Virus record (IMG/VR): IMGVR_UViG_3300050190_000082 | Coordinates: 32,001-96,000 of that record | Direction: 5' to 3' (one strand) | DNA from: a virus | Length of the DNA stretch: 64,000 nucleotides | Part shown: positions 24,823-46,570 of the stretch, in pieces | How the letters are laid out: each line of letters starts with the position of its first letter | How positions within the stretch are numbered: position 1 is the stretch's first letter | Translations under genes and position numbers: made by a program | The notes under the pieces: generated by a model | Seen by the model: the letters and a program-made list of their open reading frames with translations, nothing else | Told to the model about the DNA's origin: nothing | The model's database searches: none

Positions 24823-26670
24823 ATGTTGATTACTAAAGAAGTTGAAGTGGGATTAAAATCACAAACCATAAAATGGTATGAAGATAAAGGTTATGAGATA
24901 CCAAGAAGGATAGATAAGTATGGGAAGAACCGTGTTAAAAAGGGAACAAAAATTAAAGTGAAAGTAGAGGATCTAACTGATAGTTCAGATGTGCCAGTTA
25001 ATGTTCAATGCGATGGTTGCGGAGAATTATTAGAAGATATAAGATGGCATTCCTATAAAAAATGTGTAAAACAAGATGGTAAATATTATTGCCTTAAATG
25101 TGCAATGAGATTATATGGTTCGGTAAATCTAAAGAAAACCTTATTAGAGAAGAGTATATCTTTCTACCAATGGTGTTATACTAATCTTTCTAAAGAATTA
25201 GCAGATTATATATTATTGAGATGGGATTATGATTTAAACATTGATGAATATGGTAAAAATATAAGCCCTGAAGATGTTTGTATTTGTTCTTCTCTTTCTA
25301 AGGGAAAGGGATATTGGTTTAAATGTTTAGATCATCCTGAACATGATTCTGAACAGAAAAGTATCATAGATTTTACAAGAAGACAAAAAACAAGTCTTAA
25401 TTGTATTCAATGTAACATGATAGTAGTAACTCACCCTGAATTGGTAAAATATTTAGTAAATAAAGAGGACGCATATAAATACTCCATAGGATCAAATGTC
25501 AAAATACCAATGAAATGCCCTAATTGTGGATTTGAAAAAATGATGTCCCTTAATACCTTATTTAGAGGATTTGGCTGTTCGAGGTGCTCTGATGGCGTGA
25601 GTTATCCTGAGAAGTTTTTATTTTCAATGTTGGAGCAGTTAGATGTAATTTTCAAGGTTCAGTTAAGTAGTAAAACCTTTGAATGGTGCAAAACTTATAA
25701 ATATGACAATTATATAGATAATATGAGTTGTATAATAGAAACTCATGGAATCCAACACTATGAAGAAATCAAGGGGAGTTGGAAGATGACTTTAGCTGAA
25801 ATACAAGAAAATGATAAATCTAAAGAAAAGATCGCTAAAGAAAACGGAATAATGAGTTATATAATTTTGGATTGTAAGCACTCAAATACTAAATGGATTA
25901 AGAATAGTATAATAGAAAGTGATTTACCGAGGGTATTAGGGTTTAAAGAAGATGATGTAAATTGGCTTGAATGCCATGAATTAGCTTGCTCAAGTTTAGT
26001 TAAAATAGCGTGTGAACTCTGGAATAGTGAAATTAAAAACACAACATATATAGCAGATAAATTAAAAGTAGATAAACATACAATTGTAAAATATTTAAAG
26101 CAAGGCGTTGAATTAGGTTGGTGTGATTACGATCCAGATGAAGAAAAAAAGAAAAGAAGTATTTCAATGAAAGAATTAAACTCTAGAAAAATGATTTGTT
26201 TAACGACTAAAGAAGTATTTGATTCTCAAACAGAAGCTGAGCAAAAATATTCTATAATAAATATATCTGCATGTTTTGGCAAAGGAAGACAAAAATCAGC
26301 AGGAAGACATCCTGAAACGGGTGAGAAATTAGTATGGATGTTCTATGATGAATATTTAGTTAAATCACAAATTATAGGGTGGTGTGAAGAATATATAAAC
26401 AGTCACAATGGTAAAATAATCTGTCTGACTACAAATGAAATCTTTAATCAGCAATCTGAAGCATGTAATAAATACAACATATCTCCTTCGTGCATATCTA
26501 TGTGTTGTAGCAATAAATACAAGTCAGCAGGCAAACATCCAGATACAGGAGAATTATTGAAGTGGATGAATTATGGTGAATACATTAAAGCTCAAAAATC
26601 AGATTTACCTCCTGTGGATAACTTTCAAAGCACAACCAATAATAATAGTAAGATAAACCATTTTGTATAA
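24823..26670 (+). CDS. multi-domain putative homing endonuclease (Zn ribbons, PD-(D/E)XK/Vsr-like core, two NUMOD-like repeats)
   Basis: CxxC repeats, YD.Y...IIETHG.QHY core, duplicated ICLTT.E.F...SAG.HP.TGE.L.WM repeats. Confidence 0.65.
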   Translation: MLITKEVEVGLKSQTIKWYEDKGYEIPRRIDKYGKNRVKKGTKIKVKVEDLTDSSDVPVNVQCDGCGELLEDIRWHSYKKCVKQDGKYYCLKCAMRLYGSVNLKKTLLEKSISFYQWCYTNLSKELADYILLRWDYDLNIDEYGKNISPEDVCICSSLSKGKGYWFKCLDHPEHDSEQKSIIDFTRRQKTSLNCIQCNMIVVTHPELVKYLVNKEDAYKYSIGSNVKIPMKCPNCGFEKMMSLNTLFRGFGCSRCSDGVSYPEKFLFSMLEQLDVIFKVQLSSKTFEWCKTYKYDNYIDNMSCIIETHGIQHYEEIKGSWKMTLAEIQENDKSKEKIAKENGIMSYIILDCKHSNTKWIKNSIIESDLPRVLGFKEDDVNWLECHELACSSLVKIACELWNSEIKNTTYIADKLKVDKHTIVKYLKQGVELGWCDYDPDEEKKKRSISMKELNSRKMICLTTKEVFDSQTEAEQKYSIINISACFGKGRQKSAGRHPETGEKLVWMFYDEYLVKSQIIGWCEEYINSHNGKIICLTTNEIFNQQSEACNKYNISPSCISMCCSNKYKSAGKHPDTGELLKWMNYGEYIKAQKSDLPPVDNFQSTTNNNSKINHFV

Positions 26671-36279: not shown

Positions 36280-36403
36280 AATTAACGTTTTTGGTCTATT
36301 TAAGTTGATTTATGGATACTCTTAATATATACTCAAAAGAAGGGAATTGATTTATATGGAATTAGTGCCAAAAATATAATTTTTAATGGAGGGTGAATAC
36401 GAA

Positions 36404-37750
36404 ATGAGTAGAAAAAATAAATCACAAGAAGAAACATCTGCAACGTCAGAAATTGAGAATGATGCTATATGGGATAAGGGTACAAGAGATGGAGATAGTA
36501 CAGAGGAAGAGGAGGGGAAGGAAATGCCCCCATTATTATCCCTAAGTGAAAAACTGAGAATAGAAGAAGACAATAGTAAATCAGACAACGGCTTAGTTGA
36601 ATGGGAATTAGAGAATTGCCAACCTGTAATAATTAATAAAATAGTAGGTAAATATTCAGTCCCAATATCTGGGGGATTATTAGCTACTATGGCAAATGAT
36701 CTTTTGCTTCATTATAATGAGAAAACACAAAGGGGCAAAAAGCTACGAGCTAAGGGTGAAGTTCCTTACCTTATGGTTTCAAAAGTTAAAAAGATTTATG
36801 AAAAACTTATTTCTGGAGAGCTAAATGGAATGCTCATCAGTTTGAATTCCAGAATAATAAAAAACGAGAATGGGGAAATATTAAATCCCCTAAATTATGA
36901 TTCAGATTCACAAACTCTTAATGGCTCAGGGGAATTAGATGTGGTAGATGGGTGGCACAGAATTTCCGCATGTCAATACTGGCTTAAAAAATGGAAAATT
37001 AAAAAGAACAGAAAAATCATCCCTAGTCCTTGGGATTACGAGTTTATCACAGCAATTGAACATAAAGAAGAAGAAAATGCAGGTCTATTATTTGTTGAGT
37101 ATGGTTCTACTCAATTAAAAATTCAAACATCTAAAATTAAGTTTCTTGATGTTTTTGATTATGCAAATATGATCACTAGAAACCTGATGAAGGGGTCATT
37201 AAGAGACAAGATAGAAATAGATAAAAATAGAACAAAGGGTACGAATAATATTGTCACATTTGCTACATTAAATGATGCAATAAATGATAACTTTAAAATT
37301 CCAGTAGAGGAAGATGTTGAAAAAATAAGTACCTATTTGAACTTATTTTTCACTAAATTAATTAATATTTTCCCTGAGTATTTTGGTAATATGTCAAAAG
37401 AGGACAGATCAATAATGAGGACTAAGGATTTGAATCTTGAATTATTGATGTTTAGAGGTTATGTTGCTATTAGTTCTAGATTGTATGGAAAAGAAAATTG
37501 GGAAGATAGTTTGTCAAAACTTAGAAGTGTAATTCAAATCGGTTCATGGCGTGGTACTATACTGCAATCCGATTGTCCTATATGGGATAGAATTTTCAGA
37601 GGGGGAGATGAGCGTAAGATAGTTAGTGGAAGTACAACCGTTAAATATTGCAGTAATGTATTAGGCGATTATATTGAATTTGGCATTGATGAAACACTTA
37701 GGAAAATTAAAGAAGCTGATGAAGAGAAGTTTAGAAAATTGAACAAGTAA
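36404..37750 (+). CDS. DGQHR/DndB-like (ParB-superfamily) protein
   Basis: LDVVDGWHR motif, E...LF...G..Q pattern; acidic disordered N-terminus. Confidence 0.7.
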   Translation: MSRKNKSQEETSATSEIENDAIWDKGTRDGDSTEEEEGKEMPPLLSLSEKLRIEEDNSKSDNGLVEWELENCQPVIINKIVGKYSVPISGGLLATMANDLLLHYNEKTQRGKKLRAKGEVPYLMVSKVKKIYEKLISGELNGMLISLNSRIIKNENGEILNPLNYDSDSQTLNGSGELDVVDGWHRISACQYWLKKWKIKKNRKIIPSPWDYEFITAIEHKEEENAGLLFVEYGSTQLKIQTSKIKFLDVFDYANMITRNLMKGSLRDKIEIDKNRTKGTNNIVTFATLNDAINDNFKIPVEEDVEKISTYLNLFFTKLINIFPEYFGNMSKEDRSIMRTKDLNLELLMFRGYVAISSRLYGKENWEDSLSKLRSVIQIGSWRGTILQSDCPIWDRIFRGGDERKIVSGSTTVKYCSNVLGDYIEFGIDETLRKIKEADEEKFRKLNK

Positions 37751-37807: not shown

Positions 37808-38968
37808 TTATTTTATTTTTAATTTGTTTATGTATTCATCTAAGATAGTTTCCACGTTATCTATATCATAGTACCAAATTTCCAGAAAATTATATCTATT
37901 TTTAAGAGCGTATTCTTTCTTACGTATGTCGTGTTCTTTTTGCTTTTCTAGATTTTGTTTCATAAAATAGTTCCCTTTTCCATCGTTACCATCATGGAAT
38001 TCCCCTTGGTATTCTATAAGTAGTTTATATTGAGGCAAGTAAAAGTCATAAGATAATAATCCATTACCTAAACCAACAAGACCATCAAATTTTTTCTGAG
38101 GTATGTAATATTCTTTTCTTAAATCAAAAACCCTCTTGCATTCTCTTTCACCTTTTGATGTACTACATTCTGGACAACCACTATTAAATCCTCCATTTCT
38201 ACTCCCAATACTAGCTTCCCACTCATGTCTACACTCTTTACATTTCCACCAAACATATTTCTTACTTCTTCGTGTATATTCTTTAGGTGATTTGTCATTT
38301 TTATTGTAATCCCATTCTTTACAAAGTTCAGGATTATCTAATAATAAATTGTAATCATCACTTGGTAATATATGATTACAATATGGGCACCCACTATTTT
38401 GACTTGTTCTATTATTTAAGCTAACTTTCCATTCATGCTTTGAGTTATTTTTACATTGCCACCATATATCTCTCGGTAATCCGCAAGTTACATCAAAAGG
38501 AGTCAAATCTCCATTTAATGTTGGATGCCATTCGGATGCTAATTCAGGATTAAGTGTTGCTAAACAGTTTGATAAACCAACTAATTTCCCAGCACAATAT
38601 GGGCAACCTTTATTAAAATGTATTTTTGCCCACGTAGAATTGAATATCTCACAACATTTTATATTTAAACATTGCCATTTCATATCTATATCGTTTGCAT
38701 TATATATTTGATTCTCAATTAATTTAAATGGTTTATTATTATTTTTAACCCACAAGTTGATATTTTGAATTGTATAAGGATTTGTTTTTTGAAATTTTTC
38801 AGGGAGTGATTTTAAATTATTTAACTTTGTAAAGTAAAAATAACCTTCTATATCTTTAAATACTAATTTTTGTTTATTATTTATATATTCTTTGCTAACT
38901 AATTCAATTCCTAACTCTAAATTCGAAACAATTTCCCTAACCTCTTCAATTGTTTTCTTTCTTGACAT
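37808..38968 (-). CDS. Zn-ribbon repeat / Vsr-like putative homing endonuclease
   Basis: GCPYC repeats, PELASEWHPT.NG, LSYDFY..LIEYQG.FH..D..K..YA..LEIWY. Confidence 0.75.
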   Translation of the reverse strand: MSRKKTIEEVREIVSNLELGIELVSKEYINNKQKLVFKDIEGYFYFTKLNNLKSLPEKFQKTNPYTIQNINLWVKNNNKPFKLIENQIYNANDIDMKWQCLNIKCCEIFNSTWAKIHFNKGCPYCAGKLVGLSNCLATLNPELASEWHPTLNGDLTPFDVTCGLPRDIWWQCKNNSKHEWKVSLNNRTSQNSGCPYCNHILPSDDYNLLLDNPELCKEWDYNKNDKSPKEYTRRSKKYVWWKCKECRHEWEASIGSRNGGFNSGCPECSTSKGERECKRVFDLRKEYYIPQKKFDGLVGLGNGLLSYDFYLPQYKLLIEYQGEFHDGNDGKGNYFMKQNLEKQKEHDIRKKEYALKNRYNFLEIWYYDIDNVETILDEYINKLKIK

Positions 38969-39092
38969 AATCTTTTATCAATCCTTCCTTAATAGGTCTA
39001 TAATTTGGAATAAGACACTCAAACTCTAAGGAAAGTTCAAGCATCTCGTTTTAAAAGTTACAGACTTCGAACCCTGCAACTCAACCAAAAAT
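38969..39092 (-). ncRNA. structured cis-regulatory leader (T-loop hairpin plus pseudoknot), copy 1
   Basis: Stems with G-U pairs only on the minus strand; loop UUCCUUA complementary to UAAGGAA at the RBS. Confidence 0.6.
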
Positions 39093-39587
39093 TAATTTCA
39101 AATTTTTAAATCTACATAAAATAGAGACTTCTTTAAAAGCTCAAAACTTACCTCACTCATGCTCTCATATGCTTCCATTTACTCCAATTCCCTAGCATAC
39201 AAATAAGTTAAAATCTCCCTTTTATTTGAAGGTAACAAAACTTTTTAAGCAAAATATAGTTTTGCTAATACAATTTTTTGTTCTTAAATCCGCACAACAA
39301 AAAGGAGAGTTATATTTCAACTCTCCTTAAAACATAATTAACTTATTTTTACAATATCAATCAATCCCATTTCACAAAACTCAAATTTAGCGTATAATAA
39401 ACATAATAGTTAAGTAATATATTGAAAATCAAGAAAAATAACATTTGTATATATTATTTATTAGTAGTATAATAATTAATAAGGAGGTGAGGACTGTTAG
39501 GGATATCTTTTAGAAATATCTTTGGTAAGAAACAGGACCATCCATTCGCTAAAAAAATATCCAAAAGAAGAGAGGGGAAAACACTAC

Positions 39588-40997
39588 ATGAAAAAAACTA
39601 AAAAGTTCTTAGCTAGTTTGGTAATTATGGGTATGGTTGCTACCATGGTCCCACTAAATGTTTTGGCAGCAACAGGGGTAACAACGGATCGAATTGGTGG
39701 TGCAGACAGATATCAAACTGCTAATGCCGTAGCAGATAAGATTGTATCTCCGACTACTGCAATCCTTGCCCCAGCTGAAAATGATAACTTGGTAGATGCC
39801 TTAGCGGCAGCACCATTAGCTGGAACCAAATCTCCTATTTTACTGACGCAAAGCAACACCCTGACTGCTGCTACAAAAACTGAACTGGCTAAACTAGGCG
39901 TTACAAAGGTCTATGTAGTTGGAGCAATCAGCAAAACAGTCGTCGACCAAGTAAGTGCAATGGGTATTACAGTTACCACTCTCCAAGGCGCTGATCGTAT
40001 TGCAACTGCGGCTATGATTTCTTCTAAACTCACCACCGCACCAGCAGGTTCATTCGTAGTTGGCTATAATGCTTTGGCAGATGCATTGTCGGTAGCTTCT
40101 TATGCAGCAGCTAATAACTATTCTATCTTAGTAGCAAATCCTGATGGAAGCCTTCCGGTATCCGAGGCCACTTATAAAGGTGCTAAAGTTTACACCGTCG
40201 GTGGACCTAAACTCGTAGCAGACATCGCTGGTGCTACTCGTCTCGCGGATACAGATCGATTCGCTACGAATAAAGTCGTGCTCGAAACTCTTGGTTACAC
40301 CTATAACAAAGTCTATGTTGCTAACGGAACACAGGCACACTTAGTTGACTCACTCGTTGCTTCATCCTTAGCTGCCTTAGATGGCGCTCCAATCGTTCTG
40401 ACAGACACATTTACTGGCGGGGATGCTACTGCAGCTGCCATCGGTACTAAACTTGCTGACAATGCGGTAGTGGTTGCACTTGGTGGAGATCAGGTTGTTA
40501 CGAATGAAACTTTGGCGAAGGTTACCAAAATAGATTATACTTACACTGTAACAGACGGTAAAGCCCAAATTACGAGGTACACAGGGGATGGTGGAGCTAT
40601 TGCAATACCAAGTACATTAGGTGGAGTTCCTGTCATAAGCATCGGCTACGACGCTTTTTTCTATTGCACAGGCTTAACTAGTATTAGTATTCCGCAAGGA
40701 GTCACAAGTATCGGTGACGGGGCTTTTGCCTTTTGCACAGGCTTAATTAGCATTACCATTCCTAAAGGAGTCACAAATGTATCCAGCTATGTCTTTTACT
40801 ATTGTCCAAACTTAACTACTATTAACTTTAACTCGGCAACAACAACTATATATGATGATTCATACACAATTCCAGACACAACAAAGATTATAGGATATGC
40901 CTCATCTACCGCAAAAGATTACGCTACAAAATATGGAAACACGTTCGAAGTTATACCAGAAACGTTAGCTGCTTTAATGGACAGGATTCATACTTAA
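39588..40997 (+). CDS. cell wall-binding repeat 2 (CWB2) surface protein with BspA-type LRR
   Basis: Signal peptide, three G.DR..T / PILL repeats, IG..AF..C..L.SI.IP repeats; higher GC than flanks. Confidence 0.85.
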   Translation: MKKTKKFLASLVIMGMVATMVPLNVLAATGVTTDRIGGADRYQTANAVADKIVSPTTAILAPAENDNLVDALAAAPLAGTKSPILLTQSNTLTAATKTELAKLGVTKVYVVGAISKTVVDQVSAMGITVTTLQGADRIATAAMISSKLTTAPAGSFVVGYNALADALSVASYAAANNYSILVANPDGSLPVSEATYKGAKVYTVGGPKLVADIAGATRLADTDRFATNKVVLETLGYTYNKVYVANGTQAHLVDSLVASSLAALDGAPIVLTDTFTGGDATAAAIGTKLADNAVVVALGGDQVVTNETLAKVTKIDYTYTVTDGKAQITRYTGDGGAIAIPSTLGGVPVISIGYDAFFYCTGLTSISIPQGVTSIGDGAFAFCTGLISITIPKGVTNVSSYVFYYCPNLTTINFNSATTTIYDDSYTIPDTTKIIGYASSTAKDYATKYGNTFEVIPETLAALMDRIHT

Positions 40998-41099
40998 ATA
41001 TACACAACAAAAAAGAAGAGTAAAACTCTCCTTTAAGCTAAACTATAATTTCCACATATTCCCTATTGTAAATAAACCATAACCATGTTACATTTACCT

Positions 41100-41209
41100 T
41101 GCTTGATACCAAAGCAACCAAGTGTAGAATATTGTTCTACATTCTTCAAAGGAGATTATGCCTTCTTTGAAGAGGGAAGAAGATCATATTAATTTATGGT
41201 CTTCTTTTT
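41100..41209 (+). ncRNA. candidate sRNA (four hairpins)
   Basis: TTGTAA-N17-TACATT promoter, stacked hairpins, U-tailed terminator. Confidence 0.4.
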
Positions 41210-41258
41210 AATTATCTATTTTGAATCTAGGTTTTGATACGTTGGTTCATTTTCGATC

Positions 41259-41888
41259 CTAAATACTTTTAATATACCTTAACCCATTAGTAGAACTACC
41301 AGTATATAGGACTTCACAATCAACAATTTTATTTATGCGTTGAGTTGCTAAATTTACTTCCTTTGCATCAATTTGTATAAGTGTAATATCATTCTCTATA
41401 CAAAATGCAAGTTTATTCTTTTTAACTGGAGATGTATTATTTACTTCCACAGCAATTTCTATTTTACCTTTGTGAGAAAATGCAATATCAAATATAAAGA
41501 TACAATCAGCTACTCCTTTATATTTGCAAAAATTACATGGATGAGACTTAAAATATGTATAGTCTTCATCCATAATTAAAATATTTTGATTCCACTTGCC
41601 ACGTTCACTATCTGAAAATCTTGTATCAAATAATTCACAATCTTCTTCATAGGTATATGCTTTAATACATTGACAACACTGACCACTATGATAAGGTTCC
41701 ATTACACCTGATTCTTTATAGACATAGGATTCCATTGACCCAAATCCCATTCTGTCTATATCTATATGAAATCTGTATCCTTCTTGGTCTTGAAAAATAA
41801 CATCTTTATTGACAATCCAGTCCATTAGATACCCTTTGTTGTAATAATGTAATCCACCTTCATTTGACTTTAGTTCTGTAATCTTCAA
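41259..41888 (-). CDS. PD-(D/E)XK-like (CoiA-like) protein
   Basis: FDIA....IAVEV..T....K......I..I.I motif; GAAGGAG RBS. Confidence 0.5.
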   Translation of the reverse strand: MKITELKSNEGGLHYYNKGYLMDWIVNKDVIFQDQEGYRFHIDIDRMGFGSMESYVYKESGVMEPYHSGQCCQCIKAYTYEEDCELFDTRFSDSERGKWNQNILIMDEDYTYFKSHPCNFCKYKGVADCIFIFDIAFSHKGKIEIAVEVNNTSPVKKNKLAFCIENDITLIQIDAKEVNLATQRINKIVDCEVLYTGSSTNGLRYIKSI

Positions 41889-42125
41889 AATTTAAACATC
41901 TCCTTCAAAATTGATATAAAAATAAGAGAGTATTATAACTCTCAAAATATAAATTCAAATTCTGGACATAAATATTGAGCTTGTCTCAATATTTTGGACA
42001 GAGATTATGACGCTTCATAATCTAACCTGCTTCGTCGTCCCTATATCCCTAATTCATACACTTATCTATAAGCAAAAGGGGATTCTCTGTATTAAAGTAT
42101 AGAGAAGTCCCCTTAACAATATATA

Positions 42126-44087
42126 TTAGAAATTTATGTATCTTCTATTAGATTCTATATCCATATTATTATCTTTTAAATATTGCAACATAATTGGTTT
42201 AATCATTGACTTCTTAAATGTATCAGATTTAATATCCAATAATTCTTTTACTTTTGCTTTACTTAATCCTTGTTCAAGTAGTGTTTCATTCAAAATCAAT
42301 CCATCTCTATAATCTTCATCTGCTAAAACTTTATCAAAGAACTCAATCAAAGTTTCAACTACATCTTTTTTATTCTCTACAACCTTACCACTTTTCTTTG
42401 ATTGATATTTTAATCCCCAATTATATGTAATTTGGATATCAGGCATAGCTTTTTCAATAAGAGCATCAACTTCTTTATCTCTGTTTATCAAATAAGCATA
42501 AGTTTCAGGACAACCACCATCTACATATCCACGAGATTTAACTCTATTTAATGTTTGTACTATTAATGAACTAATCACAGATACTTTAACTTTCTCAAAT
42601 TCCTCTTGTTTGTATTTTCTATTGCCTTTGATTGGAATAAGAGTAGTATCTAAAGAATTAAATTTATCTGCTGATAGTTCATTCTCACTTACTGAACTTG
42701 TAAAATACATTAATGGATATATTGCATCTGGTAAAAGTTGAATCCCTAATACAAATATTAAATCAAACTCACTCCATTTATTACTTCCTATTGTCCTTCC
42801 ATAATGAGTAATATCAATTTGATCTATTTTCTCATATCCTTTAAATGCTTCTCTAATAATCTTATCTCTTTCTTCACCATTAGTAACTATCAATACTTTT
42901 TCAGCATCAGTTATTTTGCTTTTAATATCTTCAATAATTGTATCTAATAACCCATCCTCTAATCCTTTTCTCATTGATGCAGAAGAACCAGTTACTCCAT
43001 TAAAAATGTTTAAGTGCATATTCTTATATGATTTAATTTGTGGTAAATCTCTTACATCTGACTTGTTGTTAATCTCATATAAATAGTTAATACCTGATGT
43101 AGCGTCTAATGTTACTTTGTAGAAATAAGGATTATCCATATCAATGTACTTATATGTAATTATGGATTTATATTTTATATCGTCACTAATATTTACATAC
43201 CCACCAGTAGCTAACATTGTTCTAATTGCCAGATATGATTCTTTTGCTTGTTTATCTTTGCAAGTGAAGAATAATTCATCTAGTCCTTCAGGCACTTCAA
43301 TATTTTCAAAGGTAGAAAAGAATACGCTATTTTTCTTTATGTCATATGGCTTTAAAAATTCCTTCTTAATCTTAGTTACAAAACCATTAAATCTATCATA
43401 AATATCTTCATTACCCATATTCATAATTGCATTTTCCATTGCACAGATTGAGTTCATGCTGACTGTCATAAATTGAACATTGTTTATGGCTTCATCCACA
43501 ATCAATCTCTCCCTATAAAAAGTATTATATTTACCATGTTTAGTGTTAATTCTTTTATCAGACCACTCACATAATTTATTTACTTCATCTTTGTCAATCA
43601 ATTGTAGAAATCCATTATGAGTTAATACAATCACTGGATATTCTTTTAATTCTTCATTATCAATGGAGTTTCTTTTTCTATCATTAAGTTTATCAAATCC
43701 ACTGTGATAAGCATAAGCTAATTCTATTCCTGCTTTTCTATTAATTGATCTCACAGTTTCATCGCAATCTTCTTTTGTAAGTTTTAATATAATTGTCCCA
43801 GAATATGGTTGTAATAATTTGTTGTTTAACATGTAGGAAATACCATTATTCATTGCTGTAGATTTTCCACAACCAGTAGGAAAGTTGACTATTGCTTTCT
43901 TATCTCTGATAGGGTAAAACATAATGTAATAAAGTAATTGTTTAAGTCCTTTGTAGTATTCTCCACCACTAGGAATAATGACGTTGTAAGTTGCTAATTC
44001 TTTGATTGTTAATTCTGTTGCTTCTGCTACATGTTTCTTTTTTGTTTCAAGTTCCATCTTTTCTAGAAATTCTTTGTAATTCATCAT
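42126..44087 (-). CDS. divergent SF2 helicase-like / origin-binding-type protein
   Basis: PTGCGKST, LTH, IVDEA, LDAT, G.N.W, Q..NR motifs. Confidence 0.6.
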   Translation of the reverse strand: MMNYKEFLEKMELETKKKHVAEATELTIKELATYNVIIPSGGEYYKGLKQLLYYIMFYPIRDKKAIVNFPTGCGKSTAMNNGISYMLNNKLLQPYSGTIILKLTKEDCDETVRSINRKAGIELAYAYHSGFDKLNDRKRNSIDNEELKEYPVIVLTHNGFLQLIDKDEVNKLCEWSDKRINTKHGKYNTFYRERLIVDEAINNVQFMTVSMNSICAMENAIMNMGNEDIYDRFNGFVTKIKKEFLKPYDIKKNSVFFSTFENIEVPEGLDELFFTCKDKQAKESYLAIRTMLATGGYVNISDDIKYKSIITYKYIDMDNPYFYKVTLDATSGINYLYEINNKSDVRDLPQIKSYKNMHLNIFNGVTGSSASMRKGLEDGLLDTIIEDIKSKITDAEKVLIVTNGEERDKIIREAFKGYEKIDQIDITHYGRTIGSNKWSEFDLIFVLGIQLLPDAIYPLMYFTSSVSENELSADKFNSLDTTLIPIKGNRKYKQEEFEKVKVSVISSLIVQTLNRVKSRGYVDGGCPETYAYLINRDKEVDALIEKAMPDIQITYNWGLKYQSKKSGKVVENKKDVVETLIEFFDKVLADEDYRDGLILNETLLEQGLSKAKVKELLDIKSDTFKKSMIKPIMLQYLKDNNMDIESNRRYINF

Positions 44088-44099
44088 TGTTAACATCTC

Positions 44100-44185
44100 C
44101 TTCAATATTGTCCTTAAAAATATAATAAACAGACAGGCACTAAGGATTGTGCTTTTCGGATGGCCTACCCTAGTCTGTTTATTTG
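44100..44185 (-). ncRNA. three-way-junction RNA leader with pseudoknot near the RBS
   Basis: P1 AAUAAACAGAC/GUCUGUUUAUU, GAAAA junction, loop UCCUUA complementary to downstream UAAGGA. Confidence 0.55.
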
Positions 44186-44572
44186 TGCCAAATTAAGACA
44201 CACAAAAAGCACCTCAATAAGAAGTGTTTTTAATCTGCCATAATTTTTTAATAAAAGGAGAGCTATTTTAACAATAACTCCCCTAAACCCTATAAAATCA
44301 TTTTACACTTTTAGAATACCATTATTTACGTCACTCATGCTCCTATTTACTCCATAATGCTTCCATATACTACCCAATCTGTTTTGAAAATCACGATCAA
44401 TTAAAATTCCAATTTTAATCTGTTAGAGATTATGTAAGTCAATTACACTAATATGAGCCATATTTAAGAGTTTGAAGTATAATGTGATACATAAATTGGT
44501 ATAAGATGTAGAAATTTTACTTAGAATATTTGACATAATTATTTCTCCTTTTATAATTATTATTGATTTGAA

Positions 44573-45256
44573 TTATACTGTTGGAGTAATGCTTTTTTGT
44601 ACATTTTCAATAACATGTTTAATTGCTACTTCTGCATCTGCCGTAGCCTTAGCTAAAACTTGATTATAAATTTCCTTCATCATATCTTCTGATACAACAA
44701 TAGGAGATACACTAACAGGCGTAGGAATAACTTCTACTGGAGTCTGAATTTCTGGTGTAATTGGAGTTTCTGGAACTATTTCAGGAATGTCTTCAATCAC
44801 AGGAATAGCAGGTGCTTCAGAGGTTTGGATATCTTCAGGAATACTTGGAACTTCGTCTAAAATAGGCTGTATTGAGTTGAATTGTTCAGTTTGGATGATT
44901 GGTTGGGTATCAATATTTGGAACGCTTAGAACATCATTTAAACCTTGTTTTAGTTGATTAACGCAAGGCTCAATTAATGATTTCCATTGATCTGATGTCA
45001 ACTTAATACCATACTTCTCAGCAATTATTTGGGCTGATGCTAATGCAGAATTTAGTTTCTGTTCATTATTAAGTCCCAACTCTTTTGAAATTTGATTTGA
45101 GTATGCAACCGCATTTAGCGATATGACCTTTGCTGTTTCAAGTTGCTTTGTTGATAGATGTTGACGAATAAAAATAACCAAATAACCCACAAGAATAGGT
45201 GTAGCCGTAGTAACGATAGTGAGAATCAAATTGTACAAAATTGTAGTAAAATCCAT
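44573..45256 (-). CDS. phage holin (LL-H-like) with Pro/Glu-rich extension
   Basis: N-terminal TM, AV...Q......KL..A......GI......LIE..V pattern. Confidence 0.65.
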   Translation of the reverse strand: MDFTTILYNLILTIVTTATPILVGYLVIFIRQHLSTKQLETAKVISLNAVAYSNQISKELGLNNEQKLNSALASAQIIAEKYGIKLTSDQWKSLIEPCVNQLKQGLNDVLSVPNIDTQPIIQTEQFNSIQPILDEVPSIPEDIQTSEAPAIPVIEDIPEIVPETPITPEIQTPVEVIPTPVSVSPIVVSEDMMKEIYNQVLAKATADAEVAIKHVIENVQKSITPTV

Positions 45257-45285
45257 GTTCTTACATCTCCTAATTATTTATTTGT

Positions 45286-46449
45286 TTATATTAAAAAAGA
45301 ATTACCTTTGTTAGATAATTCTTTAAGATAGTTGTCCAATATTGTTTCAATATTATCAAAATCCCAATACCAAATCTCTAAAAAATTATATCCATTAGAT
45401 AATGCATATTCTTTCTTACGCTTATCATGTTCTTGTTGTCTTGCGAATTGTTTTTCTGCAAATTCTAGTCCTTTGCCTTTAAAATCTATTGGCTTCTCAT
45501 GTTGTTCTCCTTGAAATTCTATCAAAAGATTATATTTTGGGACATAAAAATCGTATGATAATAAACCACCACCTAAACCAATAAGCCCTTTAAATTCTTT
45601 TTGAGGTATGAAATAAATATTATTTTTATTATTGAATAATTTAATTGCTTTTTCTCCTACTGATTTGTTACATTCTGGGCAACCGTTATTATTTCTTTTA
45701 CATATGGGCGTTTCCCATTCATGTCCACATTCTTTACATAACCACCATGCGTATTTGCCACTTCCACATGTTACATCATAAGGAGTCAAATCTCCATTCT
45801 TAGTAGGATGCCATTCTTTAGCTAGTTCAGGATTAAGTGTTGCTAAACAATTCGATAACCCTACTTGTCTTCCAGCACAAAATGGGCAACCTGCACCAAT
45901 ACTAATATGCCCCCAATCACATTTAAATTTTTCCCCACATTTTAGACACTGCCATTCTAATTTTTTATCAGACCCATTATATTCTTTGCTAACAAGTATA
46001 AATGGTTTATTATTAAACGTACACCATAATTCTATGTTTTGAAGTGTATATGGGTTTGTTTTACCAAATATTTCAGGCACTCCTTGTTGTTGTAAGGTTA
46101 CTAAGGATAAGGCATAGAAATACCCTTCACTATCTTTAAATATCAATTTATTATAAGCTCTTATATATATATCACTTATTAACTCTAATGGTATATTATT
46201 TAATTCTATTAAGAGTTTAATATTTTGTATTGTATATGAGTTAGATTTATGAAATTTTCTCGCTTTTTTATTAGTAATAAGATTATTCAATTCAACCTCA
46301 TAATAGTAACCATCTTTATCTTTTATTAATAATTTTTGGTAATTATTTATGTAATATTTAGTTAGCAATTCATATCCCAAACTATTAATAATTTCTTCAA
46401 CCTCTTGGATAGTATGTTTCTGTGAGTTTTTACGTCCTCTATCTGACAT
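45286..46449 (-). CDS. Zn-ribbon / Vsr-like putative homing endonuclease (paralog of 37808)
   Basis: Shares CLATLNPELA.EWHPT.NGDLTP.DVTCG and LSYDFY..LIEFQG.QH. Confidence 0.75.
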   Translation of the reverse strand: MSDRGRKNSQKHTIQEVEEIINSLGYELLTKYYINNYQKLLIKDKDGYYYEVELNNLITNKKARKFHKSNSYTIQNIKLLIELNNIPLELISDIYIRAYNKLIFKDSEGYFYALSLVTLQQQGVPEIFGKTNPYTLQNIELWCTFNNKPFILVSKEYNGSDKKLEWQCLKCGEKFKCDWGHISIGAGCPFCAGRQVGLSNCLATLNPELAKEWHPTKNGDLTPYDVTCGSGKYAWWLCKECGHEWETPICKRNNNGCPECNKSVGEKAIKLFNNKNNIYFIPQKEFKGLIGLGGGLLSYDFYVPKYNLLIEFQGEQHEKPIDFKGKGLEFAEKQFARQQEHDKRKKEYALSNGYNFLEIWYWDFDNIETILDNYLKELSNKGNSFLI

Positions 46450-46570
46450 TATTTAATTTCCCCTTCCGTCATAGAAAAGCACAAATGGAAGAAGAGACCC
46501 ATGTAACGGCATAAGTCTCTAGTTTTACACTTATTAGACTTCGAACCCTAATAAGAAACCATATATTTAT
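46450..46570 (-). ncRNA. structured cis-regulatory leader, copy 2
   Basis: Same AGGGUUCGAAGUCU hairpin; loop CCGUUA complementary to UGACGG next to the RBS. Confidence 0.6.

Follow-up and report, generated by a model that had tools for sequence, protein, structure and literature searches.

What do the structured leaders do that directly precede two paralogous endonuclease genes of a phage? Both lie in the stretch of DNA analyzed here (the window, 64,000 nt), which corresponds to bases 32001-96000 of the 153,759-bp virus record IMGVR_UViG_3300050190_000082, 30.6% G+C. An initial annotation had interpreted them as a conserved cis-regulatory RNA, possibly a new motif, that carries a covarying pseudoknot at the ribosome-binding site (RBS). 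The comparative analysis described below supports such an RNA, which is missing from Rfam. Comparison with relatives shows a predicted three-way-junction fold, in which six to seven covarying pairs would join the loop of one arm (P3) to the segment directly 5' of the Shine-Dalgarno (SD) sequence. The leader very probably acts as RNA and probably controls translation of the nuclease encoded downstream; the best explanation, which we hold tentatively, is a built-in translational controller that would operate by feedback between monomer and dimer. The elements of the two copies, W1 and W2, are the following:

38969-39088 (-), leader W1 (copy 1): three-way junction P1/P2/P3 with pseudoknot partner and weak helix P4; 42.5 bits, E 2e-5
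39085-39088 (-), W1 P1, 5' strand: partner strand 39005-39008; nearly invariant, covariation cannot test P1
39055-39082 (-), W1 P2 hairpin: 10 bp; 8-nt loop 39065-39072 including a palindromic hexamer
39012-39047 (-), W1 P3 hairpin: 15-16 bp; pseudoknot strand 39027-39033
38982-38996 (-), W1 pseudoknot partner region: partner 38985-38991 adjoins and overlaps the SD-like AAGGA at 38982-38986
37808-38968 (-), W1 endonuclease open reading frame (ORF): 386 aa, free-standing; DUF4379 zinc fingers and DUF559/Vsr-like C-terminal domain (E..D..ExxGxxH..D)
46450-46562 (-), leader W2 (copy 2): architecture identical to W1
46530-46555 (-), W2 P2 hairpin: 9 bp; loop 46539-46546, palindromic hexamer identical to that of W1
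46493-46520 (-), W2 P3 hairpin: 11 bp; 6-nt loop 46504-46509
46485-46490 (-), W2 P1, 3' strand: partner strand 46559-46562
46460-46479 (-), W2 P4 hairpin: anti-SD 46474-46479; loop with pseudoknot partner 46466-46471; SD 46460-46465
45286-46449 (-), W2 endonuclease ORF: 387 aa; paralog of the W1 protein
44112-44180 (-), canonical Rfam int-alpA RNA: 54 bits; between W1 and W2, same topology

Fold of the leaders

Both leaders occupy the places on the minus strand where they had initially been seen, and each contains, in the same order, a UGG, the P2 hairpin, a UAAAAC linker, a second hairpin (P3), a UUCCA and a complement of the P3 loop at the RBS. The pairing of the 5' UGG with the 3' CCA (P1), which closes the three-way junction, had gone unnoticed. 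The 11-12 bp assigned to the second hairpin apply to W2 (11 bp) but not to W1, where P3 comprises 15-16 bp with G-U pairs and its top one or two pairs must open for the full 7-nt pseudoknot strand to be exposed. The 14-mer shared by the two copies does sit on different outer stems and has only two occurrences in the 153,759-bp genome, even with two mismatches allowed. Compared with shuffled sequences, folding of the coding strand gave z = -2.5 for W1 as well as for W2, and the covariance model R2, built without the W1 copy, recovered W1 at E = 2e-5, the next match in the genome having E = 6.8.

By protein-anchored searches, pattern searches and R2 we collected approximately 70 distinct relatives of this subtype, nearly all of them on phage or metagenome contigs and many from a few related samples. 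One member resides on a contig of a Clostridium metagenome-assembled genome (MAG) and was the sole true member among 25 matches of a pattern scan of GTDB. P2 and P3 covary: across 19 sequences 93% of the cells pair, 15 of the 24 pairs differ on both sides, and the covariation score is 0.56, compared with 0.24 in shuffles (0/500); slid registers score no higher than 0.16. P1 (UGG/CCA) is near-invariant, that is, conserved but unproven by covariation. Helix lengths and junction bases are conserved across members while stem sequences are variable; P3 has a median of 12 bp, a spacer of about 13 nt separates P1 from the pseudoknot partner, and P1 is tethered to the beginning of P4 by about 5 nt (median). 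As already proposed for the two window copies, G-U pairs favor the coding strand, with 42 G-U cells versus 8 A-C cells, which supports an RNA on that strand.

The predicted pairing of the P3 loop with a segment at the RBS, for which a compensatory change between W1 and W2 had been noted, holds for the relatives too, as each P3 loop matches its own downstream partner. Cognate combinations of 37 distinct loops form on average 6.2 Watson-Crick pairs, non-cognate ones 3.9 (0/2000 permutations), and about 20 different loop-partner sequences occur among the members. A single complementary site is present in 47 of 55 members; it mostly ends 10-19 nt ahead of the start codon and adjoins the SD on the 5' side. 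This partner lies inside the 30S footprint, and it overlaps the SD itself in W1 and in the members L235, L216 and L303. The differing pseudoknot sequences of copies on one contig correspond to chance expectation. In L303:2465-2595 (+), P3 has 21 bp and only 7 nt separate P1 from the partner, so that loop pairing within one molecule is hardly possible there, making this locus a natural test case for pairing in trans.

A further hairpin, P4, had been missed at first reading. Its loop usually carries the pseudoknot partner, and its 3' strand holds and masks the SD. P4 comprises on average 5.98 bp, compared with 5.16 bp if the arms are swapped between members and 4.54 bp if they are shuffled (0/500 in each case), and its median stability is about -4.2 kcal/mol; the P4 of W2 has 6 bp.

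The loop of P2, initially described as T-loop-like, turned out to hold a palindrome. It consists of 8 nt, reads UUGCAA, without the position-4 purine of a T-loop, in 49 of 73 members and has unrelated palindromic hexamers in relatives; a tRNA-type T-loop (7-nt, UUCRA, position-4 purine, conserved) was thereby ruled out. Nor is the 14-mer invariant across the family. Its palindromic hexamer varies yet stays self-complementary, most members having UUGCAA rather than UUCGAA, both of which are palindromes. A scan of viral contigs for the exact 14-mer returned 112 matches of which all but four were due to chance, so the 14-mer does not define the family. The double change between CG and GC requires at least 5 independent events on the tree, or 13 by parsimony, on a poorly resolved tree; inversion of the loop was rejected as its source, because an inverted palindrome is the same sequence. 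A self-complementary P2 centre is also kept by members that were collected with the loop left unspecified, and in a wider int-alpA-like family, collected blind to the P2 loop, 11 of 14 distinct P2 loops contain a palindrome of at least 6 nt (shuffle control: mean 1.5, maximum 6 in 20,000). Such palindromes are absent from P3 loops (0/16 and 0/32). Eight different palindromic hexamers exist across the sets, and among canonical int-alpA-type P2 loops 6 of 9 distinct ones are palindromic over 4 nt or more (p 2e-4), and some int-alpA-type relatives possess GACG loops. The P2 core remains self-complementary through sequence change and is purine-flanked, as in a retroviral dimerization initiation site (DIS), with a C as 5' flank in some loops of the wider family. 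Copies on one contig have the same palindrome in four cases and different ones in three, so neither sharing nor avoidance is consistent. By computation, an extended duplex is favored over two monomers by 15 kcal/mol, as would be expected for any such hairpin. Pairing between copies appears to be the simplest reading of the maintained palindrome, and on balance we lean slightly towards the view that P2 loops do pair in this way.

Mobile cassettes and the int-alpA class

A co-oriented gene ends 5-88 nt (median 21) before each leader, and filled and empty sites of relatives diverge exactly at the 5' end of the leader. In L223 (filled) and L282 (empty), for example, the ends of the upstream genes are 97% identical and 12 nt are shared after the stop, followed by divergence at the leader start; the pairs L273/L458, L316/L459 and L274/L288 resemble this case. 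Moreover, different nucleases can occupy one insertion site, and one nuclease can occupy different sites. Judging from these comparisons, the leader is the 5' end of mobile nuclease cassettes and not a 3' element of the upstream gene, and it is unlikely to be a cofactor of one protein. For the gene upstream of W2 no relative was found, hence no empty site is available for the window's own cassettes. Truncated leaders that contain P2 only and lack the pseudoknot occur at L237:5351-5449 (-), L282:779-876 (-) and L299:4520-4609 (-); no nuclease was found directly behind these three, which are possibly scars of cassette loss.

The suggestion that the leader travels with one nuclease family was not supported, since it also heads HNH, GIY-YIG/NUMOD and EndoVII-like genes: 27 of 60 distinct downstream proteins have DUF4379, and GIY-YIG, HNH, NUMOD or EndoVII-like domains occur in others. 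An N-terminal motif similar to MLITKEV recurs in many nucleases whose catalytic domains are unrelated (e.g., L276:493-1875 and L292:10768-11847), suggesting joint shuffling of leader and first codons as a single module. The two window proteins (386 and 387 aa) are 44% identical, and both combine DUF4379 with the DUF559/Vsr-like C-terminal domain, whose match to DUF559 is weak. EDxHD (Vsr-like) homing endonucleases have a C-terminal E..D..xH..D catalytic motif (PMC3239194). Residues E266, D300, E311, H317 and D342 of the 387-aa protein fit this motif, and all but E266 are invariant in 21 homologs; no profile match to the I-Bth0305I or Vsr structures and no PDB match for the nuclease domain were obtained.

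The W2 endonuclease gene lies within the lysis region, where it is flanked by a 132-aa ORF and, 29 nt downstream, by the holin gene. The W1 cassette opposes the local gene direction and is flanked by genes for a DndB-domain protein (36386-37750, +) and a CWB2/leucine-rich-repeat surface protein (39522-40997, +). A 26-codon ORF with its own SD (39098-39178, -), possibly a leader peptide or the remnant of a gene, ends about 10 nt before W1 and is preceded by a terminator (39302-39328). The window also encodes DNA polymerase, NrdD, tail, amidase, holin and CWB2 cell-wall-binding proteins, from which, the CWB2 protein in particular, we infer a Firmicute host. A third nuclease of the same broad family (24823-26670, +; 615 aa) is preceded by a 17-bp hairpin and a promoter-like stretch, without a junction leader. 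In the full record, leader-like folds stand upstream of the nuclease ORFs 124790-125977, 134887-135885 and 141618-142688 (all -), one being a three-way junction with a palindromic loop and one a two-way form with an exposed strand that matches its RBS region; four plus-strand nuclease-like ORFs of the genome have no such leader.

Is the leader then a new motif, as initially considered? Rfam searches left W1 and W2 unmatched at the gathering threshold and at E up to 10; the same was true of 20 loci from relatives, searched at E up to 5. This includes the int-alpA covariance model RF02996, whose threshold is at least 35.8 bits. Nor did blastn against isolated phages yield a match; in 150 sampled genomes of the family of the Clostridium MAG RF02996 found nothing, its controls being equally silent. 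The motif is thus absent from Rfam and new at the level of a subtype, but intermediate forms (L267, L276, L279, L355 and L362) link it to the int-alpA class: they combine an int-alpA-like UAG/UGANAAG junction, which only they carry, with the long P2 and the loop of the subtype. Like int-alpA RNAs, the leader is predicted to have a P1/P2/P3 three-way junction, a self-complementary P2 loop and a P3 loop able to pair with a stretch close to the RBS of the following gene, and it heads optional phage genes. In int-alpA, however, CUAG precedes and CGAAAAG follows P2, whereas the subtype has UU and UAAAAC or UAAUUA at these positions, and P2 and P3 are 3-4 bp and about 5 bp long instead of 9-11 bp and about 12 bp. 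Leaders of the wider family possess two complementary sites, a proximal decoy and the SD itself (18 of 22), in contrast to the single site of the subtype (47 of 55), whose partner is located 5' of the SD, is free to vary and is accompanied by the additional SD-masking stem P4. Furthermore, int-alpA precedes integrase or AlpA-type genes, while the subtype heads homing-type nucleases. We therefore describe the leader as a variant of the int-alpA class with long arms and a single site; it is not filed as a member, because it matches neither the int-alpA model nor the junction sequence.

The phage also contains two canonical int-alpA RNAs, at 44112-44180 (-) of the window and at G000:C1:117575-117642 (-), followed by a 659-aa helicase-like ORF (42126-44105) and a 556-aa nuclease ORF, respectively. 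Their downstream RBS regions are nearly identical, and their P2 loops contain 4- and 6-nt palindromes. A 21-bp imperfect inverted repeat lies directly upstream of both copies (window 44183-44203; G000:C1:117643-117663), a weak observation with two matches in the genome versus 0.9 by chance. The int-alpA motif was reportedly one of the 224 motifs of a single survey; the name does not appear in the main text of that survey (PMC5737381). In the literature searched we found no paper on the leader subtype or on int-alpA function, although the subtype may be among 8,495 unnamed IMG/VR candidates (PMC10690425).

Possible modes of control

Free-standing homing-type nucleases must stay at low levels on strong late transcripts, which T-even phages are known to achieve by a simple hairpin at the RBS. 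The leader would instead be a portable controller of four helices, carried along by the nuclease cassette and swapped between nucleases that are unrelated. In the explanation that we prefer, the cassette of leader and free-standing nuclease gene would insert after the stop codon of a late gene of the phage, and the nuclease would be translated from the long late transcript under leader control. Pseudoknot and intact P4 should hardly coexist within one molecule, because the median 5-nt tether cannot span approximately 24 bp of P3, kissing helix and P4. In the monomer, the cis pseudoknot would melt P4 and free the SD, switching translation on as in ColIb-P9 repZ. Two copies could dock through their palindromic P2 loops, whereupon the P3 loop of one would kiss the intact P4 loop of the other, a trans contact free of the tether limit, and lock the SD. 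The net effect would be a negative feedback that caps the toxic nuclease as late transcript builds up. This scheme also fits the wider family, because there 18 of 22 leaders hold both the proximal decoy and the SD site. That translation is on in the monomer and off in the kissing dimer is possible but less likely than not, and we would be equally cautious about an mRNA leader sensing its own concentration without a protein, as an RNA-dimerization switch for selfish nuclease genes. If true, dimerization of an mRNA leader would be a regulatory input in phage, of which the literature searched holds no description, and the switch would give the orphan int-alpA class a mechanism. The variable pseudoknot supplies natural compensatory pairs, so the function of this class is directly testable.

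Several points weigh against monomer/dimer feedback. P4 has only 3 bp in W1 (about -1.8 kcal/mol) and is absent in L303, the steric argument is rough arithmetic, and the lengths of P3 and of the spacer are not correlated (rho 0.13, p 0.35). Some palindromes are weak, an all-A/U hexamer duplex amounting to only -0.4 kcal/mol, and the P2 tips of some members are perfectly palindromic, with a 4-nt loop, a feature that agrees with an extended duplex or a DNA palindrome as well as with a kiss. Finally, most members stem from a few related metagenomes, and the counts are not independent.

The main rival is a static one: pseudoknot and P4, together or alternately, would keep the RBS mostly closed and allow a low, constant rate of nuclease synthesis from a strong late message, like the hairpins of T4 I-TevI and segB, with the P2 palindrome as a secondary feature. 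RBS masking is a known control of homing endonuclease genes (PMC2988022), and the position of the partner within the 30S footprint, with SD overlap in the four leaders listed above, agrees with it. So does the placement of the partner in the P4 loop and outside the P4 stem, as expected if both structures form together. However, a plain hairpin would suffice for this purpose, a cis kiss on an intact P4 is difficult with a tether of 5 nt, and the maintained palindrome stays unexplained; we regard permanent closure as rather unlikely, and the alternatives that follow as less likely still.

If the encoded nuclease, or a host or phage protein shared by the cassettes, bound the fold and blocked initiation, the conservation of helix lengths and junction bases over variable stem sequences would be understandable, as would the MLITKEV-like N-terminus common to many downstream proteins; T4 gp32, which acts on its leader pseudoknot, is a precedent (PMC10690425). 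But the downstream catalytic and DNA-binding domains are unrelated, many proteins including both from the window lack this N-terminus, and a bound protein gives no reason for a variable palindrome, so that an autoregulatory site of this kind seems improbable. We consider it about as improbable, or marginally more so, that the P2 inverted repeat with its palindromic centre acts at the DNA level, as an operator or cassette-end signal, and that RNA folding is incidental. The leader does form the 5' border of the cassette and P2 is sometimes a perfect DNA palindrome, but the preponderance of G-U over A-C cells speaks against a DNA signal, pseudoknot and P4 are meaningful only on the coding strand at the RBS, and the palindrome changes its sequence freely, unlike a protein-binding site.

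A transcription attenuator, in which P3 and its U-rich tail would terminate leakily, reduce read-through into the nuclease gene and perhaps set free a small RNA, as in the C4 and CI systems, is very improbable. Although the P3 of W2 scores as terminator-like and U-rich tails exist in the wider family, the P3 of W1 has no terminator score, the tail is interrupted by the CCA that pairs in P1, and the pseudoknot partner is located past the presumed site of termination; moreover, cassettes reside inside operons (W2 just upstream of the holin gene), where strong termination would cut off needed genes. Least probable of all is an RNA cofactor or guide (HEARO/omega-like), which the initial annotation had also considered, or a self-cleaving ribozyme: the compact multi-stem pseudoknotted fold always directly 5' of a nuclease ORF is suggestive, but the same RNA heads unrelated DUF559/Vsr-like, HNH, GIY-YIG and EndoVII-like enzymes, its variable segment matches its own RBS region, few unpaired bases are invariant, and Rfam ribozyme and omega families gave no match at E up to 5-10. 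HEARO/omega RNA-guided nucleases, which have one cognate family (IscB-type RuvC plus HNH), were rejected for the several unrelated families downstream, the lack of RuvC and the lack of an Rfam match, known self-cleaving ribozymes because no Rfam model matched.

Comparison with known systems

The C4 antisense RNA of phages P1/P7 and the CI RNA of phage P4 (RF01695) are small junction RNAs in phage leaders, a loop of which pairs near a downstream RBS. The leader described here shares the junction and the loop pairing, but has no Rfam match.

Selfish endonuclease genes on long transcripts also have a structured RBS in the case of the T-even homing endonuclease genes (I-TevI/II/III, segB and Aeh1 mobE), with their RBS-sequestering hairpins (PMC2988022). 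There, the RBS is masked by one hairpin only and relieved by an internal late promoter, whereas the leader has a covarying pseudoknot and a palindromic loop in addition to its junction; a scan for internal promoters remained at chance level (59 vs. 59).

For the P2 loop, the closest parallel is the DIS of human immunodeficiency virus 1, a purine-flanked palindromic hexamer in a 7-9-nt loop; in Moloney murine leukemia virus, a GACG loop kisses via two pairs (PMC7357161). The purine-flanked palindromic hexamer of the leader and the GACG loops of some int-alpA-type relatives resemble these elements. The retroviral loops serve viral genome dimerization, however, while the leader hexamers are A/U-richer and their dimer is putative.

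The proposed monomeric state has its counterpart in repZ/repA of IncI/IncB plasmids, where a loop pairs just 5' of a hairpin-masked SD to form an activating pseudoknot (PMC4705826); an antisense RNA there competes for the loop. In contrast to repZ/repBA (Rfam RF01089, PK-repBA), which has a leader peptide at the RBS, upstream ORFs stop about 120 nt before the RBS here, the partner sits in the P4 loop and RF01089 is not matched. The plasmid system is a functional analog only, which has in common with the leader an upstream hairpin loop that pairs directly 5' of a hairpin-masked SD, the masking P4 being weak in W1.

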